NCBI GenBank assembly: GCA_043803205.1
Contig: JAZDKG010000044.1
Span: forward strand, 2,503-66,502
DNA length: 64,000 bases
Origin: Planctomycetota bacterium
GTDB lineage: Bacteria; Planctomycetota; DG-23; JAZDKG01
Direction: 5' to 3'
Shown here: positions 15,208 to 61,800 of the stretch, piece after piece
Layout: every line of letters begins with the position of its first letter
Position numbering within the stretch: the first letter of the stretch is position 1
The notes under the pieces: model-generated
The model's database searches: none
What the model was told of the DNA's origin: nothing
Seen by the model: only the letters and a program-made list of their open reading frames with translations
Made by a program: the position numbers and the translations under genes

Positions 15208-15581
15208 GGGAAGCACATGGTTTCCCCGCGCGGTCGGGCCTTTGGTGCGGCGAAATGCGGGTTCAGTTCCGAGTTTCTTTTCCACAGAGAGGACGTGAAG
15301 GTGGCCGGCAGGAAGGACGGCAAGGTCATTCGAGTCGGCGTTGTCGGGGTGGGGTGGGGAGCGTCGTTCGCGCGGAGCGACACGGCGGCTCTCGAGGTGC
15401 CAAACTTCCGCGGCGAAGCGGTTCGTGACAAGTGCCGCCATGATGATTGGAATCCCGATCCGGCCCGTCACAGGGCGGGACATCCGTGGTCCAGTGTTCT
15501 CGGCGACATACGTCCACCGCGGAAAGGTCTCGCTTTCGCACGCAAGGTGTGGAAGGATGCGGGACATAAGGGTTGGAGCAG

Positions 15582-17219
15582 ATGAGCGCGTTGAGCTACC
15601 CACAGCGCAAGGGCTCGATGGGACGCAGCGCCGCTGCCGCGTCGAGATGGGCGGTAGCGGCTATGATGCTCCTGGCGTCCATGGCCGCCGCTCAGGAACC
15701 GGTGGATCAATGGTCGGCTGATCTTGGAGGAGAGGCAATGATGAAGAAGCCGGGAGGCCCGCGAGGGCGGGTCATCTACAACCTCGATTGCAGCGAGTTC
15801 TTCGTCGGCACGTTCGGTCCGGTTGCGCCCGAGACGATCGACAAGTTCGTCGACAGGCACGCTGTTCTCGGCATCACGGATCTCTTCATCAACGTGAACG
15901 CGCAGCGCACGAATTATCGCAGCGACGCGTGGGAATCGAATTGGGACGGTTACGATCCGAAGGCGGGAGACGATCAGCCGTTTTTCGCGGGGATCGATCC
16001 GAAGCGGAAGTTCGAGGCACAGTTGTTCAAGAACGTGCTCGCGCTTCACGAACAGGGGTGCGACTACGCGAAGCGCATGATCGACCGTGCGCGTCAAGAC
16101 CGTCTGAGGGCATGGATCTCGCTGCGGATGAATGACTCACACTATCCGGATCAGCCGAACCACCCGTTCCACAGCACGTTCTGGCGGTCCCATCCGGAAT
16201 GGCACCTCTCAAACAAGGGCCTTGACTACGAACAGCCGGAAGTGCGCGAGCACTACATGAAACTGATCCGGGAAGTGTGTTCCCGCTACGACCTCGACGG
16301 TCTGGAGCTAGACTACCTGCGATTCTGGCTGTATTTCCGTTCCGGAAGGGAGCACAAGTGCGCGGAGCTGATGACGGAGTTCGTCGAGGAAGCGAGGGAG
16401 GCGACGCGCGGGGCGGCAAGGCGTCTGGGGCATCCCGTGGCGCTCGCGGTGCGCGTGCCGTCGACCCCCTGGATAGCGCGCCGACACGGATTGGACGCGG
16501 TCGCGTGGACGAAGGCGGGACTGGTGGATATGGTGATTGCTGCGCCGTGGTGGTCGTCCGTCGATAGCGACGTGCCTGTGGAGACTTGGAAGGGCCTGCT
16601 CGCAGGCACGGACGCATCGGTTGCCCTGAGTCTGGAAGATGGGATCGATTCGGGTGCGAGCGGACGCCGAACCATGATGCACGAGGAGATGCGCGGGATT
16701 CTGTTGAGCGCCTGGCACCGCGGGGCGGATGCGGTGTATTTCTTCAATCTGTTCACGGGCCCGTATCAGCGTTGGCCGCGCGAAGATCATGATCAGTTGC
16801 TGAACGACGCTGGCTCTTACGCCGCTCTCTGTGCGGGGCCTCGACGCCACGTGCTGACGATCAGGAGCCCCTGGGCAACGGGGGAGCCGGGTGACGGGCG
16901 GTCGCTGCCCTACACGGGCACGGGCGGCGCATTCCGCGTTCACATCGGTCCGAAACCGTTGTCGCAGCAGAACGCCCGGATCGAGCTCGTAGTTCCGGGC
17001 CATGATGAGCCGCTGAGCGTGCGCCTCAATGGCGTTCTATGCCCTTGGTCGGGTCTCGCAGAGCCTGGACACATCGGGGCGTCAGGATGGACGGGACCTC
17101 AGCCGAAACGGCACGTGTACGACGTACCGTTGGATGCCCTCGAAGACGGCTACAACCTCATCGAGGCGAGCGCCGAGCGAGAGGTCAAGATCACGTGGGT
17201 TGAGATCTCAGTGCGATAA
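15582..17219 (+). CDS. Secreted glycoside-hydrolase-like TIM-barrel protein (GHL10/DUF187-like)
   Basis: Signal-like N-terminus (…RWAVAAMMLLASMAAAQEP) and a GHL10-like core (LRMNDSHY…GLDYEQPEVREHYMKLIREVCSRYDLDGLELDYLRF). The start is uncertain: TTG 15573, ATG 15582 or ATG 15618. Confidence 0.6.
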   Translation: MSALSYPQRKGSMGRSAAAASRWAVAAMMLLASMAAAQEPVDQWSADLGGEAMMKKPGGPRGRVIYNLDCSEFFVGTFGPVAPETIDKFVDRHAVLGITDLFINVNAQRTNYRSDAWESNWDGYDPKAGDDQPFFAGIDPKRKFEAQLFKNVLALHEQGCDYAKRMIDRARQDRLRAWISLRMNDSHYPDQPNHPFHSTFWRSHPEWHLSNKGLDYEQPEVREHYMKLIREVCSRYDLDGLELDYLRFWLYFRSGREHKCAELMTEFVEEAREATRGAARRLGHPVALAVRVPSTPWIARRHGLDAVAWTKAGLVDMVIAAPWWSSVDSDVPVETWKGLLAGTDASVALSLEDGIDSGASGRRTMMHEEMRGILLSAWHRGADAVYFFNLFTGPYQRWPREDHDQLLNDAGSYAALCAGPRRHVLTIRSPWATGEPGDGRSLPYTGTGGAFRVHIGPKPLSQQNARIELVVPGHDEPLSVRLNGVLCPWSGLAEPGHIGASGWTGPQPKRHVYDVPLDALEDGYNLIEASAEREVKITWVEISVR

Positions 17220-17528
17220 ATCATAATCACCGGCGCTCGGGCGAATCGAAGGCGGCGGGAGAGTGTGGGCGAGACCGGGCACAAGTGGTTTTCTGTTGTA
17301 ATCACATTCGCCGGAGAACAACGAATCTGTGCCAATTGGCATGCGAACTAACCCAAGGTCCGTGCAGTCAGATCTCCGGGCCTCTGTGGCTGTCAAGGCA
17401 CCTGAATGAAAAACCTTGCGTGTCCCGGCAGGCCTGCATCAGATGCCGGAATGTAACACATTATCCGGTAAAGGGATATGTCGACAGCGCTGGCGCGGGA
17501 ATTCGCGAAAAGAATTTCATTTTTTCGC

Positions 17529-17556
17529 TGGACAGGCGCGCGTTATAGGATAGACT
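17529..17556 (+). promoter_or_regulatory. Sigma70-like promoter candidate (TGGACA-N16-TAGACT) for the orphan unit
   Basis: Hexamers at 17529-17534 and 17551-17556, lying in an AT-richer intergenic island. Confidence 0.3.
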
Positions 17557-17780
17557 ACATATGTCGGATGTGGGCTTTGTGGTGTTTGTGGGCTCTGCCG
17601 ACGACGGGTTCTTTGAAAAACTTGTGACGGACGGGCAGAGTTGCCGTATTGAGTATCAGGCAGGCATAAGTAGCCCCCTATACCCCTCTGCGCCGCCGGA
17701 GACTGGGCACACGTTCCTCCTCGTTCCTAGTCTCCGGCATGCAATAATAGGTCACGTTACGCTGAGGGGTTGAAAACACG

Positions 17781-17815
17781 AAGGACGCCTCGAAAGAGGC
17801 GTCCTTTTTGTTTGT
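17781..17815. terminator. Bidirectional rho-independent terminator
   Basis: Perfect 11-bp stem AAGGACGCCTC / GAGGCGTCCTT with a GAAA loop, followed by TTTGTTTGT on the + strand and by TTCGTGTTTTC on the - strand. It sits 35 nt past the stop of the minus-strand GH gene. Confidence 0.65.
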
Positions 17816-17849
17816 ACCTCCATGCACCCAACTGGGCTCTTGGCAACGG

Positions 17850-20204
17850 TCAGGGGCTGTGCGATGGCGCAGGCGCGCGTCGAGGCTGCGGATTCGATCG
17901 CGTGTCGGACACGCGCAGCTCCATCTTGATGCGATGTGCGCCGCCGTCGCAGAAATGCTCCGGAACAGCACAACCTTCTACTCGTTCACCATCGATGGTA
18001 AGAAAGGATGGCGTGGCAACTCCCGTTGAAGATTCGCCATTCATGATCACGTCGAACCGCGTGCCGTGGAAGATCAGATTGCGGACGGAGCGCGCGGGCA
18101 GTTCGATGTCCTCGAAGGAGAGCTTACCATCGTCGGTGCGCACGCCAACCCGGGACAGGATGAGGTCTACGGCGTGACCCGCAGTCTCTGTGTACGCCCA
18201 GCCGCGCACCCAGTCGTTGTGCGGTCCCCACGCCTCCTGGGGGCCGTGCTTGAAGAGGGCGGCGAAGGTGCGCTCCCGAAGGGCGCGGCTCTCGCCTCGC
18301 AGGCCTTGCACGCGCAGGCCCTCGATCACGGGATGGTTGAGATACATCCACACGCCTCCGTCCCACCATCTGTTGGCGAAGTGGGGGTCGTTCAAGGCGA
18401 TTGTGGGGATCGGCGCCTCCGTCCAGAACTCGTCGGCATTGAAGAGGTGCTTGAGGAGGGCGCCCGTCTGTTCGTTGTCGGGGAAACCGCCGAAGAAGGC
18501 GACAAAGGCGTCGGCGGCGAGGATGTCGATGCGCTCATCTTTCGTTTCGTCCCGCACGAGGTAGATGCCCCGCGCGGGGTCCCAGAGTTTGAGGTTCGCA
18601 GCGGTTCGGATGGCGTCGGCGCCGGCGTCGAAGGCCTCGGCGTCGGAAGCGCGGCCGAGGACGCGCGCGATGGCGGCGAGGCTGCGGTAGTCCCGACTGA
18701 CGCAGGCGGAGTCCCCCACGCCGACGACGGAACGGGAGTCGGGAGTCGACCGACGGGTGATTTCGTCTGATTCCCCGATGAGGCCCGAGGAGGCGCGGCG
18801 GAGGTTGTCGCCGTCGGCATCGTACTGTCGCATGGTGCCCTCGACTTGGGCGACGGCTCGATCGTAGAAGCGCGCAAGGAAGTCCTTGTCGCCCGTAAGC
18901 TCGTACGTCTTCCAGATCTGCCAGGCGGTGTTCGTGCATTGCCCCGCCGAAGCCCCGCTGACGGCGAACTGGTTCTCGAGAATGCTGTCGACGAAAGCGG
19001 GATAGACGAAACGCATGCCGATAATCGCCATGATCTCGTCCCATTGCCAATAGCCGATGTAGTTGTACTTCGCGTCAGGGATGAGGCTTGCGCTGGCGAA
19101 GCCGGGGGCGTCGCCGGGGACGGTCGCCTGAAAGAGGGTCTGGGTGCAGGAGTAGTAGAGCTGGGCAAGCGGATCGTCGCCCTCGGGCTGAGGGCCGTTG
19201 GAAAGCAGGGCGTTCCACAACCCCTGCACCTCGGCGGCGGCGGCGGAATAATCGCGAGCCAAAGCGGCTTCGGCGCGCGTGCGAGCCTCCTCGGCGCTTG
19301 TCGTGCTCAGTCCAAGGGCGACCTTGAACTTGAGCGTTTCCCCCGGCGAGAGGTCGCCTGGAAGGAGAAGCGCGAAGGAGACGGGCTGGGAGTTGTCGGC
19401 GAGAGTTGCCTCCGAGGGTCCGACGGCTGAATGCAACAGCATCTGGGTGAGCGCTTCTCTGGGCGTGCCTTGACAGGCGAGGCCCTGCGGGACAGGACGG
19501 CTCAGAACCCAGCAGGAATAGAAGGTGACTTGCTTGCGGGTGGGAAGGTCCACAAAGGTGTCGGAGCTCTCGGCGAGGGAGCGCGCCGGGTCCACCCGCA
19601 TATGTCTGGGGACCTTGGGATCCCGGCACATGTAGGCCGGCGATCCCGCGAAACCTTCGTGGGCGCCGAAGGCGGCAAGGCTGATCCGCAAGGCCGTGGG
19701 ACTCGGGTTCGCGAGTTCGATCTCGGAGAGCACGGAGTCGGGGGTTGGCATGGTGGTGCGGGCGCTGGCGGACAGGTTGGCGGGTTCGCCTTTGAGTTTG
19801 TCGATCGCTCCGGAGGTGACGAGTTCATGGGGCGCCCAGACTCTGCCCCGGAAAGGATTGACGGGCTTTGCATCGTCGAGGACTACGACTGCGAAGGCGG
19901 GGTTCAGATTCCATGCGGTGAAAGACCGCACGTAGCCGATGGGAGCGCACTCGCCGCCGAGTTCCTTGTCCTGCCAGAGCGCGGGTCCCCTGGCGGCGAC
20001 ACCGCAGAGGGAGAGGGGGAGCGAAAGAGTCTCGTGTCCCGGCGCGTCGCGCAGAAAGTCGCAGTAGTCGCGAAGGATCCCTCCGCTATAGCGGGCGGGC
20101 TCGGTCTCGAGAAGACAAGCCGGCCTTGCCTCTCCACCCTCTTGTGCCAACAAAGGCAAGGAGAAAAGAAGAACGATGAGAGGAAGCGCATGCTTGGTTA
20201 TCAC
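17850..20204 (-). CDS. Secreted six-hairpin (alpha/alpha)6 glycoside hydrolase, GH63 / MGH1-like
   Basis: The GTG at 20204 is preceded by GGAGG and yields the signal peptide ITKHALPLIVLLFSLPLLAQ. Also has a YIGYWQWDEIMAIIG motif (WxWD of GH63-like enzymes) and a long alpha-helical catalytic region. The track start at 20345 (TTG) is probably too long. Confidence 0.7.
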   Translation of the reverse strand: MITKHALPLIVLLFSLPLLAQEGGEARPACLLETEPARYSGGILRDYCDFLRDAPGHETLSLPLSLCGVAARGPALWQDKELGGECAPIGYVRSFTAWNLNPAFAVVVLDDAKPVNPFRGRVWAPHELVTSGAIDKLKGEPANLSASARTTMPTPDSVLSEIELANPSPTALRISLAAFGAHEGFAGSPAYMCRDPKVPRHMRVDPARSLAESSDTFVDLPTRKQVTFYSCWVLSRPVPQGLACQGTPREALTQMLLHSAVGPSEATLADNSQPVSFALLLPGDLSPGETLKFKVALGLSTTSAEEARTRAEAALARDYSAAAAEVQGLWNALLSNGPQPEGDDPLAQLYYSCTQTLFQATVPGDAPGFASASLIPDAKYNYIGYWQWDEIMAIIGMRFVYPAFVDSILENQFAVSGASAGQCTNTAWQIWKTYELTGDKDFLARFYDRAVAQVEGTMRQYDADGDNLRRASSGLIGESDEITRRSTPDSRSVVGVGDSACVSRDYRSLAAIARVLGRASDAEAFDAGADAIRTAANLKLWDPARGIYLVRDETKDERIDILAADAFVAFFGGFPDNEQTGALLKHLFNADEFWTEAPIPTIALNDPHFANRWWDGGVWMYLNHPVIEGLRVQGLRGESRALRERTFAALFKHGPQEAWGPHNDWVRGWAYTETAGHAVDLILSRVGVRTDDGKLSFEDIELPARSVRNLIFHGTRFDVIMNGESSTGVATPSFLTIDGERVEGCAVPEHFCDGGAHRIKMELRVSDTRSNPQPRRAPAPSHSP

Positions 20205-20361
20205 GTTGAGCCTCCACGCGAGGAGCTCTCCCGGCGGAGACGACCCCCGCAATGTAGCTGTTCGTCCCCCAAGGGGCAAGGGAGGGGTGCGGAGCCTTGC
20301 AGCAATGGTCAATGCGCTGTATGATTCAAGAACATGATGGAACAATCGGTGTATTAGGGGC

Positions 20362-20514: not shown

Positions 20515-22497
20515 ATGACAACGGACGCCAAGAAGGGCAAGTTCGGGGAACTCCTGGTACAGGCTGGGCTCGTTACGCAGGCCCAGCTCGATCAGGCGCT
20601 CCAGGTTCAGAAAGAGCAGGAGGACCGCCAGAGCATCGGGAGGATCTTGGTCGATCTGGGGTATCTGACACAGAGGAGACTGCGCGGGGCGGCGAAGAGG
20701 TTCGGGAAGCGCTTGCTCGTCGGGGAGCTTCTGGTGACGGAGGGGGCGATCACGCGCAAGCAATTGGAGAAAGCTCTGCGGGAGCATAAGGCGACCGGGC
20801 ACTCGTTGGGGAAGGTCCTCGTCGGCGCAGGCGTCGTGAGCGAGGATGACCTCGCTCGGGCGTTGGGCAGACAGCTCGATATGCCATATATGGTTCCGCA
20901 CGCCGGGATGGTTGACATGCAGGTGTTCACCCGCTTGCCGGAGCAATTCATCCGGAGCAACTCGGTGCTTCCCGTCGCGGAGAAGGACGGGGAGGTCACG
21001 GTGGTGGTGGCGGACCCCGTGGACGGCGGGCTCATCCAGAGACTGGAGAAGGTGCTGGGGGAGAACCTGCGTCTGACTACGTCCAGCAAGTCCCGCATCG
21101 ACAAGGTGATCGAGGAGTTGATGTTCCGGAGGGAACTGGGCATCGGCGCGCAGGGGATGCCGGAGGATGAGGAGGGGACGGCCTCCGTCAGCCTGTCGAT
21201 CGACAGCGTGTCGATGACGGGCGGACGCGGCGAGCGGGGCCACGAGAGCATCTTCGACGGGATCCTGCTGGACGCGGTGAAGAAAAAGGCGTCGGACATC
21301 CATTTCGAGCCCCAGCGGGACCGCGTGCGGGTCCGCTATCGCATCGACGGGATGCTCGTGGACGTGACGCGGGTCCCGCTTTCGCTGGCGGGCCCCTTTG
21401 TGCGACGCGCTAAGGCGCTGGCAAGGCTCAGCAGCTACGAGACCCGCAAGCAGCAGGAGGGGAGACTGTCGGTCGAGGTGGATGGAGAGCAGTTCGACCT
21501 GAGGGTTGGCACGTTTCCGTCGATCTTCGGCGAGACCATGGCGATCCATTGTTTCTCACGGGAGATCGGCAGGAGGAGGAGGCTGGACGACCTGGGGATG
21601 CACCCGGGGGTGCTGGCGACCTTCCGAGCTTCGGTCGAGCGCAGCCTCGGCGCGACGCTCTTTGTCGGACCGACGGGTTCGGGCAAGACGACGACCTTTT
21701 ATACGGTCCTGAGTCATCTAAACGACGGAACGCGGAAGATTATTTCTGTGGAGGCCCCGGTGGAGCTGACCCTGGAGGGGGTCGTCCAGCACAGCCTTCA
21801 GGAATACGAGCCGGCTGAAATGGTCGGGGGACTGCTGAGCGCGATGCAGCACGATCCGGACGTCATCGCGCTGGGCGCGATCGTGTCGGACGAGGTGGCG
21901 GAAAAGCTCCTCGAGGTGGCGATGATGGGACACAAGGTGTTCTCCACCATGCATGCGGAGGACGCTGTGAGCGCGCTCGTGCGGCTACGGAACCTGCGCG
22001 GCACCGGCTCGTTCCTCGCGTGCTGCACGATCGTCCTGGTGGCGCAGGTCCTCGCGCGCAGGACCTGCCGGCGCTGCGCCGAAGTCTACATCCCGTCCCC
22101 GAAACTCGTGAGCGAGTTCGAGGTCAAAGACGTGGATCTGGACGCAATCGATTTCCGCCGGGGGATCGGTTGCTCCGATTGCATGGGCACGGGCTTCCGG
22201 GGCAGGACCGCCATCTTCGAGGTGATGGAGGCCGGGGCGGAGATGCAGAAAGCCCTGCGCGAGGGGACAAACGTGCGGGAGATCCGACACGCGATGCGCA
22301 AGGGACCGAAGTTCGTCTCTCTGCGACAGGCGGGGTTCCTCAAGGCGGCTCAGGGACTGACAACCCTTGAAGAGGTGGCGCGGGTGATGGCGCCGGCGCG
22401 CGAGGAGGGTCTGGGCGGGGAGGCGCGTACCCTCGATGAGCTTTGCCGCTTGGCAAACGTCACCGTGGGACAGGGGTTCCGGGAAAGGAAGGGGTAG
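20515..22497 (+). CDS. Type II secretion / type IV pilus-family ATPase (GspE/PilB/MshE-like) with tandem MshEN/T2SSE_N motifs
   Basis: Walker A GPTGSGKTTT and Walker B/Asp box (PDVIALGAI). C-terminal tetracysteine module CRRCAEVY...CSDCMGTGFRGRTAIFEV. Four N-terminal 24-aa [RK]xGxxLVxxGxxxxxxLxxALxxQ-like motifs at residues 9-120. Confidence 0.85.
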   Translation: MTTDAKKGKFGELLVQAGLVTQAQLDQALQVQKEQEDRQSIGRILVDLGYLTQRRLRGAAKRFGKRLLVGELLVTEGAITRKQLEKALREHKATGHSLGKVLVGAGVVSEDDLARALGRQLDMPYMVPHAGMVDMQVFTRLPEQFIRSNSVLPVAEKDGEVTVVVADPVDGGLIQRLEKVLGENLRLTTSSKSRIDKVIEELMFRRELGIGAQGMPEDEEGTASVSLSIDSVSMTGGRGERGHESIFDGILLDAVKKKASDIHFEPQRDRVRVRYRIDGMLVDVTRVPLSLAGPFVRRAKALARLSSYETRKQQEGRLSVEVDGEQFDLRVGTFPSIFGETMAIHCFSREIGRRRRLDDLGMHPGVLATFRASVERSLGATLFVGPTGSGKTTTFYTVLSHLNDGTRKIISVEAPVELTLEGVVQHSLQEYEPAEMVGGLLSAMQHDPDVIALGAIVSDEVAEKLLEVAMMGHKVFSTMHAEDAVSALVRLRNLRGTGSFLACCTIVLVAQVLARRTCRRCAEVYIPSPKLVSEFEVKDVDLDAIDFRRGIGCSDCMGTGFRGRTAIFEVMEAGAEMQKALREGTNVREIRHAMRKGPKFVSLRQAGFLKAAQGLTTLEEVARVMAPAREEGLGGEARTLDELCRLANVTVGQGFRERKG

Positions 22498-22501
22498 AAC
22501 G

Positions 22502-25500
22502 GTGGGGAGAGCCCGAAGAAAAAAGGCGGAGCGACACCTCGCGGCCGGACAGTGGGAAGAGGCCGTCGCGCTGTACCGCAAAGACAAGGCTTGGGACGCC
22601 CTCGCCGACGCGCATGAGAAACGGGGCGAATACCTCGAGGCGGCGGAGGCCGCAAAGGAGGCGCGACAGAGCGAGAGGGCGGCGGAGCTCTACGAAAAGG
22701 CGGGGGCGTACCGTCAGGCCGCGGAGATCTGGATCTCCATGTCGCGGGGAGAGCGGGCGGCCGTCGCCCTCGAAAAGGCGAAGCACTTCGAAGCTGCGGC
22801 GGACGTCTACGCGCGGATCGGCAGGCCGGCACAGGCGGCCGCCATGCTGGCCAGCGCGGGAAAGCATGCGGAGGCGGGGAAGCTCTACGAGCAGGCGGCG
22901 GAATTCGCCAGCGCCCTCGAAATGTACGAGTTGGCGAATCAGCCGGAGCGCATGGCTGTGATGTTGGAGGGATTGAACGATTTCGAGGGGGCGGCCCGAG
23001 TGCAGCTTCGCATGGGCGAGAAAGGCAAGGCCGCCGAGCTTTTCGAGCGGGCGCAGCGACCCATCGAAGCGGCCCAGTGTTACCTCGAACTGGGGGAGTT
23101 TCGCAAGGCGGGTGAGCTTCTAGCGGGGGCGGAACATGTCCTGGCGGCCGCCGAGGCCTATGAAAAGGACGAGACGACTCTCGGACAGGCTGCGGAGCTT
23201 TTCCGGACCGTGCTGCGGGGAGAGGAAGCTTGGCGGCAAGAAGTGCAGGGGCCGGCCCTCTGCCTCGGCATGTCGGAGTGCGGCCGGTTCATCGGCGTGG
23301 GGGCGGCTCAGAAGTTGAGGATGTTCGACGAGGAGGGCGAGCTTCTCTGGTGCTTCGTTCCGACTTGGGGCGGAGAGCCGCGGTGCTTGGCCGTCTCGCC
23401 GGCGGGTCTTGTGGCGCTCGGGTGCGACGACGAGTATCTGTACCTCCTCACGACGGAAAAAAAACTCCTCTGGGCTCAGAAGCTCCCGGGAGAGGCGATG
23501 AAGGTGAGCATGGATGCCGAGGGCAAGGTGATCGCATGCGTCACCCGGGGAAACGAGCTCGTGTGTCTCAGCGGCGATGGCAATCGGAAGTGGAATCATC
23601 ATGAAGAGAGCATCATCTGGGACGTGTCGGTGGCGCGGGACGGCAAAATGATCGCTCTGGGTCTGGGGGACGGCCGGTGCGTGGTGATGACGGAGCGCGG
23701 CGAGAAGGTGGGGGAGTACCAGGCGGCCAAGTGGGTGCACAGCGTGTCCCTGGGGGACCGAGGGTCCTGTGTCGCGTTGGGGACGGGGATGCAGGGGGTG
23801 GAGCTTGTGGCCGGCGAGACGTGGCGACCGGTGTGGTCGGTGCAGGGGGAGAGCTTCGTTCACAACGTGGCTCTGACCGCGGATCGCAAGGTGCTGGCGG
23901 TGGCGGATGCGGAGGCGGTCCTGCGGGACGAGTCCGGGACGGTGATCTGGAGGTACGACGGGCAGGAGCGACTTCTGGGGGGATGCGTGGATGCGGCCTT
24001 GACGCGCGCCGCGTTTCGATGCGCGGGCAAGAAGGTCCTGCGCGTGAACGTGGGCGACTGCAGGGTGCAGGCGGCGCGGGACTTCGCGGGCGCCGGGAAA
24101 CAACGCGAGGCGGGAGAGCTGTACGAGGAAATGGGCGATCACGAGGCCGCGGCGGAGATGTTCAGCCAGGCCGGGGATTACGCGCGCGCCGGGCACAACA
24201 CGGAGAGCGCGGGACTCTCCCTCGAGGCGGCGGAACTGTACGAGCGGGCGGGTGAGTTCGAGAAGGCGGGGAAGCTCTTCGAGGGGCAGGGCGAGCTCGC
24301 GCGCGGGGCGGTGTGTTTCAAGAAGGCGGGAGAGCTTCTCAAAGCGGCGGAGCTCTACGAGCGCAGCGGCGACCTCGAGAAGGCCTGCGAGCTCTTCGAG
24401 CAGGGAAAAGAGCACGGGAAGGCTGGAGCGCTTTACCGGGCGCTCGGCGACAGGACGGGGGCCATCCGGGCGCTCTCGTGTCACGTGGAGGCGCATCCCG
24501 AGGACTGGGAGAGACGCTTCGAGCTGGGGACGCTTCTGGAGGCCGACGGACAGTACGACCTCGCTCTCGGACAGTTCCAGCAGACGGCGGGCATCGAAGA
24601 GTGCCGTAAGAGGGCGGTCGTGCACGTGGCGGGGTGCTTCATGGGGAAGGGGATGTACGAGATCGCCGTCGAGCGCTACAAGGCCGCCATCGAGGGGAGC
24701 GAGGCCGTCACGTGGGAAAACCGGGAGGTCTATTACGGGCTGGGCAGGGCCTACCACCTCGCGGGACACTACCCGGAAGCGAAGCGAATCTACGAGAGCA
24801 TCCTCGCGATCGACTACCGTTACAAGGATGTCGCCGAGCGCCTGGAGGACGTGCGAAAGCTGAGCTCCGTATTCGGGCAGTCGGCGGCCGCCTCGCAGAT
24901 GGGAAGCTACGCCAGCACGATGGTCGCGGATCCGGGCTTCCAGAACCTCTCGGCCGAGAAGAAGGAAAGGTACGTCCCGCTCCGCAAGCTGGGCGAAGGG
25001 GGCATGGGCACGGTCTACCTCGCCGAGGACAAGCGGCTCAATCGGAAAGTGGCCCTCAAGATGCTTGCCGCGGGGCTGCGTGCAGACGAGAAGATGCGGC
25101 TCCGGATCGTCCAGGAGGCCCAGCTCAGCGCGCAGGTCGTCCACCCGAACGTGGTCGCCGTCTTCGACGTGGGCGAAGAGCAGGGCTGCTCCTACGTGAG
25201 CATGGAATACGTGGAGGGCGACACCCTTCGCGACCTCCTCGAAGAGAAGGAAACTTACACCCCCGGCGAGTGCGTGGAGCTTCTCCTGCAGATCACGGGC
25301 GGACTTGCGTGCGCTCATGAGAAAGGCGTGTCCCACCGGGACATGAAGCCCGAAAACATCATGGTGACGAAGAACGGGACCGCAAAGATCATGGATTTCG
25401 GACTGGCGATCCTTGCCGGCGCGACGAGGCTCACCATGCCCGGCGGGGTCAGCGGGACTCCTCTCTACATGGCGCCTGAGCAGATCCGCGGGGAGTCCAA

Positions 25501-25765
25501 GCTCACCCCGGCCGTGGACGTGTACGCGGTGGGCTGCCTCGCGTATGAGCTTCTTGTGGGACGACCGCCCTTCGCGCAGGGGAACGTCGCGACGCAGCAC
25601 CTGCATCAGCCGCCCAAGAGTCTGAGGGAGCTGCGCCCCGAGGTGCCCGAGGCCCTGGAGGGAGTGATCCTCAAGTGCCTCGAGAAAGAGCCGGCGGACC
25701 GGTATGCAAACGGGGGAAGCCTCTACGCCGCCCTCCAGGAGGTGGCGAGAGGCTTGGGGGCATAG
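22502..25765 (+). CDS. Multidomain Ser/Thr protein kinase: 13-residue helical repeats - beta-propeller - 13-residue repeats - TPR - C-terminal Hanks kinase
   Basis: The GTG at 22502 lies 4 nt after the ATPase stop, behind AAGGAAGGGG; the ATG at 22436 would overlap the ATPase by 62 nt. Kinase motifs are GEGGMGTVY, VALK, HRDMKPENI, DFG and APE. No TM segment. Confidence 0.85.
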   Translation: MGRARRKKAERHLAAGQWEEAVALYRKDKAWDALADAHEKRGEYLEAAEAAKEARQSERAAELYEKAGAYRQAAEIWISMSRGERAAVALEKAKHFEAAADVYARIGRPAQAAAMLASAGKHAEAGKLYEQAAEFASALEMYELANQPERMAVMLEGLNDFEGAARVQLRMGEKGKAAELFERAQRPIEAAQCYLELGEFRKAGELLAGAEHVLAAAEAYEKDETTLGQAAELFRTVLRGEEAWRQEVQGPALCLGMSECGRFIGVGAAQKLRMFDEEGELLWCFVPTWGGEPRCLAVSPAGLVALGCDDEYLYLLTTEKKLLWAQKLPGEAMKVSMDAEGKVIACVTRGNELVCLSGDGNRKWNHHEESIIWDVSVARDGKMIALGLGDGRCVVMTERGEKVGEYQAAKWVHSVSLGDRGSCVALGTGMQGVELVAGETWRPVWSVQGESFVHNVALTADRKVLAVADAEAVLRDESGTVIWRYDGQERLLGGCVDAALTRAAFRCAGKKVLRVNVGDCRVQAARDFAGAGKQREAGELYEEMGDHEAAAEMFSQAGDYARAGHNTESAGLSLEAAELYERAGEFEKAGKLFEGQGELARGAVCFKKAGELLKAAELYERSGDLEKACELFEQGKEHGKAGALYRALGDRTGAIRALSCHVEAHPEDWERRFELGTLLEADGQYDLALGQFQQTAGIEECRKRAVVHVAGCFMGKGMYEIAVERYKAAIEGSEAVTWENREVYYGLGRAYHLAGHYPEAKRIYESILAIDYRYKDVAERLEDVRKLSSVFGQSAAASQMGSYASTMVADPGFQNLSAEKKERYVPLRKLGEGGMGTVYLAEDKRLNRKVALKMLAAGLRADEKMRLRIVQEAQLSAQVVHPNVVAVFDVGEEQGCSYVSMEYVEGDTLRDLLEEKETYTPGECVELLLQITGGLACAHEKGVSHRDMKPENIMVTKNGTAKIMDFGLAILAGATRLTMPGGVSGTPLYMAPEQIRGESKLTPAVDVYAVGCLAYELLVGRPPFAQGNVATQHLHQPPKSLRELRPEVPEALEGVILKCLEKEPADRYANGGSLYAALQEVARGLGA

Positions 25766-25822: not shown

Positions 25823-26221
25823 CTACTTGCCGAGGATCGCGCCGACCCTCCTTAGCAGCCGGTCGCTCTCCACGGGCTTTTCGAGGTAACCCGCGGGCTC
25901 GACGCCGTAGTACGAGCGCACGTCGGCCGCGGAGAAGCGCACGCCGAGCTTTTCCCCGACGCCCGTGAGAAAACACACGGGGATGCGCCGCAGGACCTCG
26001 TCCTGCACAAGCTCATTGAAGATCTCGAAACCGTTCTTCCCGGGCATCTGCACGTCCATGAGGATGAGGTCGGGTTTCTCCTTGCGGGCGGCGGCCAGTC
26101 CCGCGTCTCCGTTGGGCGCGCTCACGACGGTATAGCCGCCTGCTTCGAGCATGGCGGCGACGCCCTGAACGGCGTCCGGCTCATCGTCGACAACCAGGAT
26201 CTTCTTCGGTGCGGGTGGCAT
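25823..26221 (-). CDS. Stand-alone CheY-like response regulator (receiver only), copy 1
   Basis: MPPAPKKILVVDDEPD...DLILMDVQMPGKNG...LEKPV. 132 aa with an AAGGAG RBS, 29 nt downstream of the FHA-GAF kinase. Confidence 0.85.
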   Translation of the reverse strand: MPPAPKKILVVDDEPDAVQGVAAMLEAGGYTVVSAPNGDAGLAAARKEKPDLILMDVQMPGKNGFEIFNELVQDEVLRRIPVCFLTGVGEKLGVRFSAADVRSYYGVEPAGYLEKPVESDRLLRRVGAILGK

Positions 26222-26250
26222 TTCGGGGTCTCCTTTCTCTTGAACTACGC

Positions 26251-27891
26251 TTACTGCTCGTCCGAACTTTCCGGGGGAGTGGAGGCATCGGTCGGCGGCG
26301 CCAGCGGGAGGCGGAGGATAAAGGTGGTGCCGCGGCCGACCTCGGAGTCGACTTCGATCTCCCCGTGGTGTTCCCGGATGATTTTGTGGACGACCGGGAG
26401 CCCCAGGCCGGTTCCCTTGGCGCCTTTCGTCGAAAAGAAATCCTGGAACAGGCGGGCCTTGACCTCGGGGGACATGCCCGAGCCCGTGTCCTGGATCATG
26501 ACGGCGAAGCGGCCGGACGCGTTCGGCGCCGCCGTCCGCAGGCACACCTCGGAGGATGGAGTCTGCGCGCAGGCGTCCACAGCGTTGGAGACGAGGTTGA
26601 GGATGCAGCGGTAGACGGACACGGGATCGACGCTCGCCTGCGGCAGCGCGTCATCCAGGTCGTATCGGATCGTTGTGCCCTGGGAGGCGGCCTTCTCGCG
26701 GTACAGGTCGCCGACGGTGCGGATGAGGTCGTTGATGTCGGTGGCCTCATACCGCGGGACCCGCTGCTTCCCGTAGGACAGCATGTCCAGCACCAGGTCG
26801 CTGAGAAAGCCGCTGTTTCGCTTCGTGATATCCCATCCCTGGAGGATCTTGGCGCGGTCGTCCGTCTCGATCCCGCGGTCCACGATGAAGGACCCGCCCT
26901 TGATGCCGTTCAGGATGTTCTTGATGCAGTGGGCTAGGCGCGAGACGGCCTCCCCGATCGCGGCCATGCGCTGCGCGCGCAGCGCCTCCTGATGGAGCTT
27001 GGCGTTGCGCAGCGCTACGGCGAAGACGGCCGCAAGACACACGATGAGCTGCAGGTCATCCTTCTCGAAAGCGCGGCCGGGACGGCGTGTAGCGACGTAG
27101 ATCAAGGCCAGAACCTCGCCGTCGACGGCGGCCGGTGCGCAGAGGACGGAGGTGGTCGCTGTGCTCACGAGGCTCTGCGAGCCCTGGAAACGGGAGTCGT
27201 CCAGCGCGCAGGCGCTTAGGATCGCCTCCCGGGTGTCGCAGGCGTGCCGCAGAATGGTATTGGACGGAGCGAGATCCGCTCCCTCTGCGCCCTTTCGCGA
27301 CGCCACGATCGAGAAGCCCGTGTTCCCGACGTCGGGCGTAAGGATGAAAGCGCTGTCTGCTTGCGAGAAGGTCTTGAAAAGCTCGTTTAGGATCGCCTCG
27401 GACAGGGACTCCACGGTGAAGCCCCCGACCGCCGCGCGGCTGACGCTGTAGAGGACCTGCAGGCGTCGCCGCAGCGCGCCGACCGGGTCGCTGACGCCCG
27501 AGGCGCTGGAGAGATCGTCGGAGGCTCGCGTCGCGATGAGCGTCGCGGTATCCATGCGCAGGGAGGTGCGCGGCGCCTCGGGCGGACCGGCCGGGGCCTG
27601 ATCCTCGTCCACGAAGACGAGCGTGAACTGGTGGATCTTGATCGTATCACCTGGGGACAGGCGCGCCCGGCGGACCATCTTCCCGTTGAGGAAAGTGCCG
27701 TTGACGCTCTTCAGGTCTTCGAGATAGTAGCCGTCTTCTCCGGTGGTGATGCGGGCGTGACTGCTGGAGACAAACGGATGCTTCAACGGAATCTGGCTCT
27801 GCGGGCTGCGGCCGAGGACGTCGTTGCCGGTCAGACGGAAAAGCTCGTTCCGTGGGGCGCCGCCGTCGTTGATCAGTCGCAGTCCGGCCAT
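26251..27891 (-). CDS. Cytoplasmic FHA-GAF-histidine kinase
   Basis: Start MAGLRLIND at 27891. FHA motifs are VLGRSP...SSSHARI...NGTFLNG. The central region is GAF-like. H-box RLAHCIKNIL, N box NLVSNAVDA, and G boxes DTGSGM and GTGLGLPVV. No TM segment. Track ORF 26251..28701 is over-extended. Confidence 0.8.
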   Translation of the reverse strand: MAGLRLINDGGAPRNELFRLTGNDVLGRSPQSQIPLKHPFVSSSHARITTGEDGYYLEDLKSVNGTFLNGKMVRRARLSPGDTIKIHQFTLVFVDEDQAPAGPPEAPRTSLRMDTATLIATRASDDLSSASGVSDPVGALRRRLQVLYSVSRAAVGGFTVESLSEAILNELFKTFSQADSAFILTPDVGNTGFSIVASRKGAEGADLAPSNTILRHACDTREAILSACALDDSRFQGSQSLVSTATTSVLCAPAAVDGEVLALIYVATRRPGRAFEKDDLQLIVCLAAVFAVALRNAKLHQEALRAQRMAAIGEAVSRLAHCIKNILNGIKGGSFIVDRGIETDDRAKILQGWDITKRNSGFLSDLVLDMLSYGKQRVPRYEATDINDLIRTVGDLYREKAASQGTTIRYDLDDALPQASVDPVSVYRCILNLVSNAVDACAQTPSSEVCLRTAAPNASGRFAVMIQDTGSGMSPEVKARLFQDFFSTKGAKGTGLGLPVVHKIIREHHGEIEVDSEVGRGTTFILRLPLAPPTDASTPPESSDEQ

Positions 27892-27935
27892 GCGCGACTC
27901 CGATTGTGTTCCCGAAAAGATGCGCTCAGGAGTAC

Positions 27936-27963
27936 AGGCTACATGGTAGGATTCCAGGTCAAA
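27936..27963 (-). promoter_or_regulatory. Promoter candidate (TTTGAC-N16-TAGCCT) for the FHA-GAF kinase / RR operon
   Basis: Read on the minus strand; about 45 nt upstream of the ATG at 27891. Confidence 0.3.
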
Positions 27964-28012
27964 TGCGCAAGTGTTTTTCGTCGCCGTCGGACCTTGTCGG
28001 CCAAAGCGGGGC

Positions 28013-28040
28013 TTGCAAAAGGGCTCACCTGACATAGACT
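28013..28040 (+). promoter_or_regulatory. Promoter candidate (TTGCAA-N16-TAGACT) for ptb
   Basis: Hexamers at 28013-28018 and 28035-28040. The ptb ATG at 28093 has an AAGGAG RBS. Confidence 0.35.
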
Positions 28041-28092
28041 GGCGGCGCCTGCCGAGAGGAATTGCGCAGGGGCGGAACAAGGAGAAGACAAC

Positions 28093-29034
28093 ATGAAGAA
28101 CTTCGATACGCTGCTGGAGCTTGTCGAGAAACACCCCGTGCGGAAAGTCGCGGTCGCCGTGGGACAGGACCCGTCTGTGATCGCCGCCGTCGAGGAGGCT
28201 AGAAAGCGCAGCATCGCTGATGCGGTCCTCGTGGGGGACGAGGAGAAAATCCGGGAGGCGGCACACGATGTGGGGGCCAGCCTCGAGGGGACGAAGATCA
28301 CGCACGAAGCGGACCCCATCCATGCGGTTGCCGCCGCCGTCCGGCTCGTGTCGTCGGGAGAGGCGGATATCCTGATGAAGGGATACATCCACACGGATGA
28401 TTTCCTCCGCGGAGTCCTGAACAAGGAGTATGGGCTCCGGACGGGCTCGATCATGAGCCACGTGTTCATCGCCGAGCTCCGTCAGCCCGAGAAGCTCCTC
28501 TTCGTCACCGACGGGGCCATGAACATCGCCCCCGACCTTGAGCAGAAGTCGGCGATCCTTTTGAACGCCGTCTACCTGGCCAAGTCGTTCGGGGTGATGC
28601 AGCCGAAAGTCGCCGTCCTGGCGGCGGTCGAGTTGGTGAACCCGGCGATGCCCGCGACGATGGACGCCGCGGCGCTGGCAAAAATGGCGGACCGGGGACA
28701 ATACGTGCCCGCGTGCATGGTCGACGGCCCGTTCGCCCTCGACAACGCCGTCTCAGCCGCCGCCGCGCGGCACAAGAAGATTGGGGGACCGGTGGCCGGG
28801 GAGGCGGACATCTTGCTCGTCCCCACCATCGAGGCGGGGAACATGCTGGCGAAATCCCTCGTCTACTTCGGGGCGCGAAGGCTCATCGGTCTCCTCGTCG
28901 GCGCGAAGGCGCCGGTGGTGCTGACAAGCCGGGCGGACTCGATGGAATCAAAAATGCTCTCCATCGCAGGTGCGGTCCTGATGGTGAACATGAAGAGGGC
29001 GCTCGCGCTCAAGGTGGGCAAGGTCCATTACTGA
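28093..29034 (+). CDS. ptb: Phosphate butyryltransferase / phosphate acyltransferase (PTA_PTB family)
   Basis: 313 aa with PTA_PTB pattern (ADILMKGYIHTDDFLR..., FVTDGAMNIAPDLEQK, MVDGPFALDNAVS, ADILLVPTIEAGNMLAKS). There is no butyrate or acetate kinase next to it. Confidence 0.8.
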   Translation: MKNFDTLLELVEKHPVRKVAVAVGQDPSVIAAVEEARKRSIADAVLVGDEEKIREAAHDVGASLEGTKITHEADPIHAVAAAVRLVSSGEADILMKGYIHTDDFLRGVLNKEYGLRTGSIMSHVFIAELRQPEKLLFVTDGAMNIAPDLEQKSAILLNAVYLAKSFGVMQPKVAVLAAVELVNPAMPATMDAAALAKMADRGQYVPACMVDGPFALDNAVSAAAARHKKIGGPVAGEADILLVPTIEAGNMLAKSLVYFGARRLIGLLVGAKAPVVLTSRADSMESKMLSIAGAVLMVNMKRALALKVGKVHY

Positions 29035-29556: not shown

Positions 29557-32500
29557 TCAGGGGGCGCGACGGCCGAGGCGGAATTCCTGGAGCGCGCAGT
29601 AGAGGACGGGGGTGACGAACATGGCGAGGAGCTCGACTGTCATGCCGCTGACGATCGGGATGGCCATGGGAATCATGACATCCGCGCCTTTGCCGCTCGA
29701 GGTGAGGACGGGGAGCAGCGCGAGGACTGTGGTGGCGGTGGTCATGAAGCAGGGACGCACGCGCTTTCGGGCCCCTTCGAGAACGAAGGAGCGCACCTCG
29801 GCGATGGAGGAGGGGGCGCGGGCGGCAAAGATCTGGTTCAAGTAGGTCGTGATGACGACGGCGTCGTCGGTGGCAAGCCCGAAGAGGGCGATGAAACCGA
29901 CCCAGACGGAAACGCTCAGGTTGTACTGACGGAAGTGGAAGAGCTCCCGGAGGTTGTGGCCGAGAAGGCTGATGTCGAGGAACCAGGGCTGCCCGACGAG
30001 CCACAGCCCGATGAAGCCCCCGGCCCAGATGAAGGCGACCTGCGCGAAGATGAGGAGCGTGACGGGGGTGGAACGGAACTGGAAGTAGAGGATGAGGAAG
30101 ATGATGAAGAGGCTTGCGGGGAGGAGCACGGAGAAGCGTTTCTGGAAGTTGAGCTGGTTCTGGTAGCTTCCGGCGAAGGCGTAGTGGGTGCCCGGAGGCA
30201 GGACGAGTTCGCCCGAGGCGATCTTGGCCTCCAAGTAGCGCTGGGCTTCCTCGACGACGTCCACTTCGGCGTAGCCTGGGCGTTTGTCGAAGAGGACGTA
30301 GGAGACGAGGAAGGTGTCCTCGCTCTTGATCTCCTGCGGGCCCGGGACGTAGCGGATGGAGGCGAGCTGAAGGAGGGGGATCTGGGCGCCCTCGGAGGAG
30401 GGGACCAAGATGCGGCCGAGGGCCTCGACGGAGTCGCGCAGCTCGCGCTGGTAGCGCACGCGGACGCCGTAACGCTCGCGTCCCTCGACCGTGGTGGTGG
30501 CGCGGATGCCTCCCACCGCGATCTCGATGACGTCCTGCACGTCGCGGATGTTGACCTTGTAGCGGGCGATTCGTTCGCGGTCGATGTCGATCTCGAGGTA
30601 GGGTTTGCCGACGACGCGGTCGGGGATGACGGCGTCGGCCTCGACGCTGGGGACGTCCTTGAGGAAGCGGGCGATGTCGTAGCCGACGCGTTCGATAGCT
30701 TCGAGGCTTTGGCCTCGGACCTTGACGCCCATGGGGGCGCGCATGCCGGACTGGAGCATGACGATACGGGCGGCGATGGGCTGGAGTCGGGGGGCGGAGG
30801 TGGAGCCCGGGACGTCGGCGACTCGGACGATCTCGCTCCAGATGTCGTCGGGGGAGCGGATGTGGTCGCGCCAGAGACGCGGACGCTTCCCGGTCTGGGG
30901 GTCGGGAGGCCCGTACTCGTCCTTGTAGGTGACGAGGGTCTCGATCATGGAGATGGGGGCGGGGTCCAGCGCGGTCTCGGCGCGGCCGATCTTGCCGACG
31001 ACGGTGTCGACCTCGGGGATGGCGCGGATCGCGCGGTCCTGTTTCTGGAGGATGTCGAGGGCTTGGCCGAGCGAGGCGTGGGGCATGACGGTGGGCATGA
31101 AGAGGTAGGAGCCCTCGTCGAGAGAGGGCATGAACTCGCGCCCGATCCCCGGGAAGGCGTGCTGGCCGGCGACCCACAGCGGGACGGAGCGCGTTTTTTC
31201 CTGGGAAATGCCGACTTTCTGGAGACCGGCTGGGATCCAAGCAAAGACGCGGGCAAACCCGAGCCACACGACGAGGCCGAAGACGATGACGACGGCGGGG
31301 ATGGAGAGGAAGACGACCTTGTGGCGCAGGAAGGCGGGGAGGATGCGGGGATATAGGTCCACGATGATGAAGCGGAGGCTGCACCAGGAGAGGTTGATGA
31401 CCGACACGAAGACGAGGTTCTTGAGTAGGCTCGTGCCGAGCCCCAGGGGCATCCAGTGGAGTGTCAGGAGCGCCAGGACGAAGAACGCGGCCAAGACGGA
31501 CGTGAAGAAGGGCATCCTTCTGAGGAGCTTCTTGGGAAGACGGGGTTCGAGCAGGAGGTAGCAGGCGGCGAGGACGATGGGGAGGCCGGCCCAGAGGGAG
31601 ATGCGCCAGCCCGCGAAGAGGCCGACGAGGAAGAGGCCCGCGTAGGCGACAGTCCTTGCCTTGACCGGCATCCTGCGGCGCTTGAAGAGGATGTGGGCGA
31701 AGGCGGGGAGCACCGTGAGGGCGGCGAAGACGGAGGCGAAGAGGGCGAAGGTCTTCGTGTAGGCTAGGGGCTTGAAGAGTTTTCCCTCGGGGCCGGTGAG
31801 GGCGAAGATGGGGAGGAACGATACGAGGGTGGTGGCGATGGCGGTGACTACGGCGCCGCCCACCTCGCTGGCGGCGCGGTAGATGACATCGAGGGGGTCC
31901 TCGTCGGGATGGGCTTCGTTGAAGTGGCGGACGATGTTCTCGCAGAGGATGATCCCCATGTCCACCATGGAGCCGATGGCGATGGCGATCCCGCCAAGAC
32001 TCATGAGGTTCGAGTCGACCTTGAAGATCTTCATCAGGATGAAGGCCGTGAAGATGGCGAGTGGGAGGTTGGCGCTGATGAGGATGTTGGAACGGAAGTG
32101 CGCAAGAAGCAGGAACACGACGAAACACGTGATGAGGATTTCCTCGACGAGGGCGTTCTTCAGGGTGCCGAGGGTCTGCTTGATGAGATCTGTCCGGTCG
32201 TAGAAGGGGACGATCTGAACTTGCGAGGAGGAGCCGTCGGGGAGGGTCTTGCGGGGGAGGCCGGGCTGGATCTCATTGATCTTTTCCTTGAGGCGGGCGA
32301 TCACGGCGAGAGGGTTTTCCCCGTGACGGACGACGACGCTTGCGCCGACGACCTCCGTGCCTTCCTTGTCGAGAGCTCCGCGGCGCAGCGCCGGACCGAG
32401 GGAGATGGTTGCGACGTTCTTCACGTAGATGGGGACGTTCTCGACGGTCTTGAGGAGGATGTTCTCGACGTCCGAGAGTTTCTTCAGGAACCCTTTGCCG

Positions 32501-34799: not shown

Positions 34800-34803
34800 G
34801 GGG

Positions 34804-61762: not shown

Positions 61763-61800
61763 GGGGAACGGTGTTTGGGTGATGAACGGGAGGAATCCAG

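Follow-up and report, generated by a model that had tools for sequence, protein, structure and literature searches.

The leg of clathrin is a solenoid of helices of about 10–12 residues, and the SNAP proteins have helices longer than those described below: their hairpins measure about 40 residues, there is a helical bundle at the C-terminus, and strict periodicity is absent. In the intraflagellar transport (IFT) proteins the solenoid comes after two WD40 propellers, with Zn-finger/U-box-like domains at the end (PMC13290226). In membrane coat-like proteins of the Planctomycetes-Verrucomicrobia-Chlamydiae (PVC) group, too, the propeller precedes the solenoid, and one of these proteins is found at internal vesicle membranes (PMC2799638); in RqkA of Deinococcus the kinase is N-terminal and the propeller C-terminal (bioRxiv 10.1101/2020.04.06.028845). 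A 64,000-nt stretch of DNA from a Planctomycetota bacterium (GCA_043803205.1, contig JAZDKG010000044.1; this whole analyzed stretch is referred to as the window) encodes a multidomain Hanks-type Ser/Thr kinase in which two arrays of 13-residue helical repeats flank a beta-propeller, and which directly follows a gene for a PilB/MshE-like ATPase. The arrays are a minimal, strictly periodic variant of the TPR-like (tetratricopeptide repeat-like) alpha-solenoid, with no new fold.

A Strict 13-Residue Repeat

Residues of the kinase are numbered here from ATG 22436, the beginning of its longest open reading frame (ORF; 22436-25765 on the forward strand, 1109 aa); nucleotides 22523, 23215, 24071 and 24460 correspond to residues 30, 260, 546 and 675. 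A preliminary description of the window had divided this protein into two phased arrays, with 18 and 10 units, and both are borne out: cutting the translation in 13s from residues 30 and 546 recovers the listed units exactly, and BLOSUM62 autocorrelation, evaluated against 200 composition-preserving shuffles, peaks at lags of 13, 26, 39 and 52 (z = 5.7, 8.8, 9.4 and 6.1 in array 1; 8.6, 9.5, 10.0 and 9.8 in array 2). There is no peak in either array at lag 34, the canonical TPR period. Elsewhere in the protein the peaks are at lag 40 for the propeller and, weakly, at lag 34 for the TPR region (aa 676-800), and the autocorrelation agrees with the earlier statement that a period of 13 is unlike that of TPR (34), Sel1, HEAT or ANK repeats.

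The consensus unit is A-A-E-L-Y-E-K-A-G-[ED]-[FY]-E-[EK], position 1 being Ala in 23 of the 28 units and position 9 Gly in 16 of them; the arrays as a whole are 19-25% Ala and about 15% Glu. The one 14-residue unit that had been described as breaking the register of array 2 does not do so: the array runs on without a break, with Gly at position 1 of that unit and the conserved Ala at position 2, and the orthologs show R-A-A there. The sole +1 shift, from Ala 238 to Ala 252, comes just ahead of the C-terminal capping helix of array 1. When 16 full-length orthologs (BLASTP identities of 27-53%) are aligned, the columns that are invariant or nearly so are the position-1 Ala residues, spaced 13 apart, and the three indels in array 1 are of exactly 13, 39 and 13 residues. 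Recent DNA duplication was considered as a source of the period and rejected, Tandem Repeats Finder having found no nucleotide repeat in the DNA; the repeat is therefore not only real but held at its period by selection on the protein.

Predicted Structure and Domain Order

An AlphaFold2 model of the whole protein, built on the 16-sequence alignment, has a mean predicted local distance difference test score (pLDDT) of 85.7, and of about 88-95 across the arrays; array 1 modeled by itself reaches a pLDDT of 95.8 and a predicted template modeling score (pTM) of 0.80. Each 13-mer is predicted to fold as a helix about 10 residues long (positions 11-13 and 1-7 of the unit) plus a 3-residue loop (positions 8-10, A-G-x), as mapped by reading the DSSP string against the sequence. 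The conserved Ala-Ala of positions 1-2 would therefore lie in mid-helix, and the structural hairpin would be 26 residues long. The model has 18 short helices in aa 21-258, the 16 regular ones of array 1 being joined by one N-terminal and one C-terminal capping helix, and the helices of array 2 run from H543-552 to H660-669. Coiled coils and amphipathic lipid-binding helices were rejected as alternatives in view of the Gly loops every 13 residues, the buried Ala-Ala, and the confident, compact model.

The beta-propeller that had been suspected between the arrays from the sequence is indeed predicted there, with seven blades (Table 1). It matches Pfam PQQ_2 (PF13360) at 43.7 bits (cut-off 27.6), its strands have pLDDT values of about 93-95, and its sequence matches in the PDB are designed PQQ-type propellers and the RqkA propeller. 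Canonical TPRs and a C-terminal kinase domain follow, again as first described. In the TPR region, Pfam TPR_7, TPR_12, TPR_14, TPR_19 and TPR_2 pass their cut-offs, and the AlphaFold2 helices run from H673-686 to H799-807; the best stretches for these models span aa 633-798, which is mostly the canonical region, although the best stretch for TPR_14 (aa 633-672) is in array 2.

The kinase domain also matches an NCBIfam PknB-like kinase model (1.8e-92), and PknA and PknB head its Foldseek matches, with template modeling (TM) scores of about 0.8-0.88 when normalised by target length. Its motifs are all present (G-loop GEGGMGTV, VALK, HRDMKPEN, DFG and APE), and from these it is predicted to be catalytically intact and active. 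No transmembrane segment is predicted in the protein, whose sequence points to a cytoplasmic location.

Table 1. Positions of the kinase gene, its predicted domains and the adjacent genes in the window (aa, residues of the kinase ORF numbered from ATG 22436).
Feature	Coordinates	Strand	Remarks
PilB/MshE-like T2SSE-family ATPase gene	20515..22497	+	660 aa; Pfam T2SSE 1.5e-83, MshEN 5.4e-14
Multidomain Hanks-type Ser/Thr kinase gene	22502..25765	+	start probably GTG 22502
Array 1	22523..23209 (aa 30-258)	+	18 helices, 13-residue register; 16 of about 10 residues with 3-residue loops
PQQ/BamB-like seven-bladed beta-propeller	23213..24058 (aa 260-541)	+	28 strands, about 40 aa per blade
Array 2	24062..24460 (aa 543-675)	+	10 helices, 13-residue register unbroken
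Canonical TPR-type region	24461..24856 (aa 676-807)	+	helices longer, mostly 13-14 residues
Flexible linker	24857..24970 (aa 808-845)	+	AlphaFold2 pLDDT <50 for aa 809-830
Hanks-type Ser/Thr kinase domain	24971..25759 (aa 846-1108)	+	Pfam Pkinase 1.2e-54, 185.9 bits
Response-regulator receiver protein gene	25823..26545	-	convergent; Pfam Response_reg 3.3e-21; 5' end of ORF probably over-extended
FHA-GAF-histidine kinase gene	26251..28701	-	convergent; Pfam FHA 4.4e-18, GAF, HATPase_c; start probably internal

Place of the Arrays Among TPR-like Solenoids

The preliminary description had remarked on a SNAP/TPR-like flavor of the array sequences, yet had placed the arrays outside the known repeat families. 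The remark holds: Pfam SNAP (PF14938) matches at 37.1 bits (cut-off 25; best stretch aa 552-616, covering profile positions 113-179 of 282), and TPR_WDR35 at 33.2 bits (cut-off 27), although no single stretch passes the latter cut-off alone (best aa 76-109). The placement does not, given these TPR-clan Pfam models, an IFT172 match at 1e-24, and structural matches to TPR solenoids only. Below their cut-offs are TPR_IFT122 (30.1 bits; cut-off 75), Clathrin (PF00637; 26.0 bits; cut-off 29.6) and TPR_GEMI5 (23.9 bits; cut-off 33). Array 1 is matched by the SNAP, TPR_WDR35, IFT122 and Clathrin models, the best stretches of the Pfam TPR models lying mostly in the canonical region. TPR_IF140-IFT172 is not in the kinase's own top Pfam list; it is recorded for most orthologs, and in the family members examined it scores 27-59 bits, above its cut-off.

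When a profile of array 1 is searched against all PDB sequences, IFT172 comes first (1.2e-24). IFT144/WDR19 (about 1e-16 to 1e-13), IFT140 (about 1e-15 to 1e-12) and IFT122 (about 1e-10 to 1e-8) are also matched, with engineered consensus TPR (CTPR) constructs interleaved among the IFT proteins (1e-21 to 6e-10) and OGT (1e-8) and the SNAPs (about 1e-6) far behind. Array 2 has PDB matches to IFT144 and WDR19. Alignment of the array profile with consensus TPR opens one 8-residue gap in each 34-residue repeat (34 - 8 = 26); the 26-residue hairpin is therefore a TPR cut by about one helical turn per helix.

The likeness to IFT172 has also been followed within that protein. In residues 706-1135 of Chlamydomonas IFT172, a segment rebuilt from the target lines of the profile alignment, the strongest autocorrelation lag is 13 (z 4.2), and there are runs of 13-mers such as IAQHYETTGALEE / AERYYIRADMARD / AVEMYSRAGKWEA. 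The array profile scores 71 bits on this segment, as against -8 +/- 5 on residue shuffles and -16 on the reversed sequence: the similarity is therefore dependent on residue order, and not compositional.

Array 1 was also modeled and searched by Foldseek separately, because kinase matches dominated the list for the full-length protein. All of its matches are TPR-type solenoids (probability 1.00): the CTPR superhelix, which ranks first (E 1e-6), IFT-A subunits, OGT, Sec17/SNAP, gamma-SNAP, LGN and kinesin light chain. TM scores are low throughout, the highest (0.40-0.55) being those of the IFT-A subunits. IFT-type arms are the nearest natural relatives of the arrays, which are themselves confidently predicted by the models to form a short-helix TPR-like solenoid.

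The first description had allowed that the 13-residue phase might prove to be a trivial sub-period of some already described family with a 26- or 39-residue unit. Part of this stands, in that the arrays fall in the TPR-like superfamily and have a 26-residue hairpin; the rest does not, since no described family has the strict 13/26 period and TM scores do not exceed 0.55. In the published literature no description of a strict 13- or 26-residue helical repeat was found, nor anything relevant on bacterial IFT-like TPRs.

Occurrence of the Repeat

When aa 1-700 served as the query of a word-indexed search, 15 full-length orthologs were recovered, every one of them from a metagenome or a metagenome-assembled genome (MAG), together with about 100 more proteins that match through the arrays only. 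Kinases about 800 aa long make up most of the latter, which also include UvrD helicases, cNMP-binding proteins and BamB+CHAT proteins. The preliminary description had contrasted the C-terminal kinase domain with the arrangement of most bacterial Hanks kinases: in array-matched proteins with a recognisable HRD motif, the kinase is C-terminal in 61 of 61. Exhaustive searching of 1.84 billion representatives with an array profile gave 9046, 2310 and 453 clusters (at 50% identity) at E-values of 1e-3, 1e-10 and 1e-30, respectively, and in the top 147 proteins the best lag is a multiple of 13 in 2083 of 2134 periodic sequence windows (98%). Relatives named in this wider family come from MAGs of Deltaproteobacteria, Vicinamibacteria, Thermoanaerobaculia and CSSED10-310. 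In the species-representative genomes of GTDB no relative was found, whether the query was the single protein or a 4-sequence alignment.

Among 49 family members surveyed with Pfam, matches were to SNAP in 41 (above its cut-off), Clathrin in 34 (E <= 1e-5), TPR_IF140-IFT172 in 26, Pkinase in 23, UvrD-helicase in 10, PQQ_2 in 8 and EAD7 in 4; the Clathrin cut-off, which the kinase does not reach, is passed in other members. The 13-mer array is a widespread bacterial module, which databases label loosely as TPR, SNAP or IFT-like, and its fusions are mostly to C-terminal kinases and UvrD helicases. Some of the proteins are giants of 1400-2250 aa (P0124, P0126, P0128, P0137 and others), with an N-terminal UvrD-type helicase and very long 13-mer arrays giving seven or eight profile stretches each, and further members carry EAD7, cNMP-binding or BamB+CHAT domains. 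Within the window only the kinase ORF has a 13-mer profile match. Two other TPR proteins there (12255-14093, forward strand; 51026-52330, reverse strand) have ordinary 34-residue TPRs and no such match.

Pairing with a PilB/MshE-like ATPase

The ATPase gene is directly upstream of the kinase gene in the window and in all six related loci examined, including those of orthologs with only 27-38% identity: the kinase and this atypical PilB-like gene are a strictly conserved two-gene unit. The position of the kinase start codon bears on how closely they are joined. The longest ORF overlaps the upstream gene by 62 nt, and its codon 23 is GTG 22502, four bases past the stop of that gene and preceded by GGAAGGGG, a ribosome-binding site. 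GTG 22502 is probably the true start, because the upstream stop and GGAAGGGG are so placed, the protein as called in a public collection has 1087 aa, and ortholog N-termini begin at the equivalent position. Such a start, with GGAAGGGG before it, would imply tight translational coupling of the kinase gene with the ATPase gene. In two of the related loci (L002 and L008) the genes overlap. A promoter and terminator scan gave no signal above chance.

The ATPase has a clade of its own, of about 17 clusters (P0269-P0285) at 39-63% identity, below which matches are mostly generic PilB/GspE proteins at 27-36%. It scores far under the NCBIfam cut-offs for PilB (371 vs 676) and GspE (332 vs 630), and matches the NCBIfam c-di-GMP_motif (cyclic di-GMP) model with 104 bits in 2 stretches. 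Four consecutive copies of an MshEN-like c-di-GMP-binding motif (hGxhLhxxGhhoxxxLxxAL) can be seen in aa 1-121 (20515-20880). Walker A and the His-box histidine are conserved in the clade. Walker B is degenerate (GAIVSD here vs GEIRD; GRITSD, GKVVSD, GEITSD and others in the clade), and in place of the Asp-box Asp there is Ala, Thr or Cys, except in the most distant member (P0285, VEDPVE). The clade also shares a conserved C-terminal tail, TLxELCxxAxL, which canonical PilB lacks. No pilus or secretion genes were found near the ATPase/kinase locus. Judged by these motifs, the protein may be a nucleotide- or c-di-GMP-sensing pseudo-motor or regulator, as opposed to a pilus motor, because it combines c-di-GMP motifs with an intact Walker A and a degenerate Walker B. 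A literature search found nothing relevant on a link between MshEN domains and kinases.

Other Genes in the Window

Downstream and convergent with the kinase gene are ORFs for a response-regulator receiver protein and an FHA-GAF-histidine kinase. Their starts have probably been over-called, because the two ORFs overlap; orthologs of the FHA-GAF-histidine kinase are 538-556 aa long. This protein is encoded near the kinase in three of seven loci, namely the window, L001 (11311-12981) and L008 (13325-15390), and the receiver protein is beside it in the window and in L008.

Other parts of the window have a variety of genes. An RND pump of CusA/AcrB type (1234-aa ORF) and a fusion protein of CusB/HlyD type with heavy-metal-binding domains (29557-34925, reverse strand) probably form a metal efflux operon. 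A single 1327-aa ORF (36348-40331, reverse strand) joins MFS transporter, acyltransferase and AMP-binding (acyl-activating) domains, its product resembling a lysophospholipid transporter/acyltransferase-synthetase fusion. Glycoside-hydrolase-like genes (15573-20345 and 57458-63555; GHL10, MGH1-like, GH2 sugar-binding domain and GH123) and a BNR/sialidase-like gene (48986-50986) suggest a polysaccharide-degrading lifestyle. There are also an MttB-family trimethylamine methyltransferase (45274-46797, reverse strand) and a URO-D-like protein (14107-15207, forward strand), and L001 carries a glycyl-radical enzyme: together these genes hint at an anaerobic host. A tRNA scan and an Rfam scan of the window were both empty.

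Proposed Role and Alternatives

The favored explanation of the locus is that minimal TPR-like solenoid arms and a propeller are parts of a scaffold or sensor kinase with a PilB-like partner, and on balance this is considered probable as a whole. The 13-mer would be the minimal unit from which a TPR-like alpha-solenoid is built, two such units making a 26-residue hairpin equivalent to a TPR of 34 residues that has lost 8. Consecutive helices, near-equivalent in sequence, would run antiparallel: neighboring helices are predicted to pack closely at the Ala-Ala of positions 1-2, with the core filled by Leu and Tyr/Phe at positions 4, 5 and 11, and Gly 9 making the turn. Arms of 18 and 10 helices would thus flank the propeller, the second running into the ordinary TPRs, the linker and the kinase domain. 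The protein is most likely a cytoplasmic scaffold or sensor kinase, in which arms and propeller could provide a platform where partner proteins dock, and could control the position or the gating of the kinase. The likeliest partner would be the putatively co-transcribed PilB/MshE-like protein, which could couple kinase output to c-di-GMP or to the ATP state; the C-terminal tail specific to its clade is a candidate for binding in the TPR-like groove. A phospho-Thr output may in turn be read by the neighboring FHA-GAF-histidine kinase through its FHA domain.

Several observations weigh against this explanation. The geometry of the superhelix comes from an AlphaFold2 prediction with a 16-sequence alignment, and its TM score to every solved solenoid is 0.55 or less. 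An idealised 12-repeat consensus TPR scores 62 bits with the array profile, vs 71 for IFT172, and repeat profiles inflate E-values; the IFT resemblance is therefore specific among natural proteins, not unique. The evidence for binding of the ATPase by the kinase, and for phosphorylation of the FHA protein, is gene order: the FHA-GAF-histidine kinase is missing as a neighbor in 3 of 6 related loci, and the short propeller-less kinases with the same arrays do not have such an ATPase beside them. The super-period is also ambiguous, lags 26 and 39 both outscoring lag 13. A structural unit of 39 residues, in the form of a three-helix repeat, was considered, since lag 39 is the strongest and one ortholog indel is of 39 residues; lag 26 is nearly as strong, however, and the best lag in family members varies among 13, 26, 39 and 52.

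Could the periodicity itself be an artefact, produced by a composition rich in Ala and Glu or by reading high-GC DNA in the wrong frame? G+C makes up about 65% of the window, where spurious ORFs overlap in large numbers, and the arrays are rich in both residues, but z still reaches 10 against shuffles that preserve composition, the register is kept in sixteen full-length orthologs and thousands of relatives, the AlphaFold2 models are confident, and the same frame leads on into a genuine kinase domain; the probability of an artefact is close to nil. A more substantial question is whether the arrays represent, as first proposed, a new repeat class unrelated to TPR, the 13-mer being an independent invention. 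No described family with a strict 13/26 period was found, nor any such description in the literature; there is no dedicated Pfam model, the Pfam matches being partial and to models built on eukaryotic proteins; and Foldseek TM scores do not pass 0.55. Several TPR-clan Pfam models nevertheless score above their cut-offs, the profile aligns both with consensus TPR (with its 8-residue gap per repeat) and with IFT172 (1e-24), and the fold is predicted to be an alpha-alpha solenoid in which array 2 passes straight into canonical TPRs, so that an unrelated class appears quite improbable.

At the other extreme, solenoid and propeller together might be a true IFT-A/IFT172 homologue of protocoatomer type, acting as a membrane-associated coat or as an adaptor for cargo, the kinase being an addition to it. 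IFT172, IFT144, IFT140 and IFT122 are the best natural PDB matches of the profile and have the best TM scores, IFT172 shows its own lag-13 periodicity, its 13-mers coming in runs of three or four, a Leishmania IFT122 paralogue can be aligned with the full model over 756 columns, and orthologs match Beta-prop_IFT122_1st. The domain order is different, though (arm-propeller-arm here vs two propellers and then an arm), there is no membrane-binding element or transmembrane segment, and no neighboring gene is coat-like; the propeller is PQQ/BamB-like, a type whose models cross-match widely, and simple repeats can converge, as the nearly equal score of consensus TPR illustrates. This interpretation is judged improbable. 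The idea that the arrays, here joined to a beta-propeller, are true homologues of IFT172/IFT-A arms, as a regular prokaryotic ancestral form or through ancient transfer, is unlikely but deserves somewhat more credence. An anti-phage defence sensor, with the arrays as its pattern-recognition surface, is suggested by PADLOC matches of the kinase to PD-T4-6, mad6 and MkoA models, and by repeat-family members fused to UvrD/GajB-like helicases, EAD7 and BamB+CHAT. The defence interpretation is weak because the PADLOC matches are confined to the generic kinase domain (aa 836-1108); the ATPase has none. Unit number and register are conserved among orthologs, unlike those of fast-evolving sensors, and the neighbors are housekeeping or signaling genes, with a phage-type integrase only in L002, about 4 kb downstream. 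Such a role is considered very unlikely, and the scaffold or sensor kinase with minimal TPR-like arms is retained.

Significance

With a unit of one 10-residue helix and one 3-residue loop, the arrays are seemingly the natural alpha-solenoid with the shortest regular unit, and their exact register over up to 18 copies, with length changes by whole units, is relevant to the folding and design of repeat proteins. The unit also marks a large uncharacterised bacterial family, with at least 9000 clusters at 50% identity, whose members are labeled in databases only “TPR repeat protein”, “SNAP” or “IF140/IFT172 TPR”; with a dedicated model, many kinases and giant UvrD helicases would be annotated more cleanly. 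The resemblance to IFT172/IFT-A arms is a testable lead on the origin of eukaryotic solenoids: were the homology true, the ciliary-transport branch of the protocoatomer family would gain a traceable prokaryotic relative. A hitherto unstudied connection of c-di-GMP with Ser/Thr phosphorylation is suggested by the invariant pairing of the kinase with a PilB-like protein that has c-di-GMP motifs and in which Walker B is degenerate.

Comparison with Known Systems

In the TPR regions of IFT172, IFT144/WDR19, IFT140, IFT122 and IFT121/WDR35 (PF24762, PF25170, PF25295; PDB 8bd7, 8bda, 8bbg, 8fgw, 8f5o/8f5p), as in the arrays, an A-x-x-[YF]-x-x-x-G-x-[FYW] motif is found on short helices, and in both cases a solenoid is combined with a propeller. 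The IFT arms are irregular, their runs of three or four 13-mers being broken by insertions, whereas the arrays here are unbroken over 18 and 10 units; and the kinase, unlike the IFT proteins, has a single PQQ-like propeller between two arms, followed by the kinase domain. With canonical TPRs (CTPR, OGT, LGN, kinesin light chain) the arrays share, as modeled, a solenoid of antiparallel helix-turn-helix units in which small residues lie where helices touch and aromatic ones form the core, and genuine TPRs come directly after array 2. Their hairpin is nevertheless of 26 residues and not 34, with near-equivalent A and B helices of 10 residues vs about 14; the Pro of TPR position 32 is missing, and TM scores are 0.14-0.31.

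SNAP/Sec17 proteins (PF14938) have a similar A-x-x-Y-x-K-A-G motif, and Sec17 and gamma-SNAP are among the Foldseek matches, but the best matched stretch covers about 65 residues (about a quarter) of the 282-position model, with TM scores of 0.14-0.22, and the full SNAP architecture of about 290 aa is not found in this 1109-aa protein with its other domains. The clathrin heavy-chain/VPS repeat, CHCR (PF00637), is likewise a short-helix solenoid, and is also tied to beta-propellers in eukaryotes; its unit of about 145 residues lacks a 13-residue register, and the kinase scores below its cut-off.

Two bacterial systems have comparable parts. The PVC membrane coat-like proteins combine a beta-propeller with an alpha-helical repeat domain, but no kinase or 13-residue period has been reported in them, and the order here is solenoid-propeller-solenoid; sequence searching found no relation between them and the kinase arrays. 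Deinococcus RqkA (PDB 7dxn/7eq5) is, like the protein described here, a Hanks kinase with a PQQ-type propeller, and the two propellers match at an E-value of about 2e-5; the difference is one of arrangement, the kinase domain here being C-terminal and the propeller embedded between the two solenoid arms.

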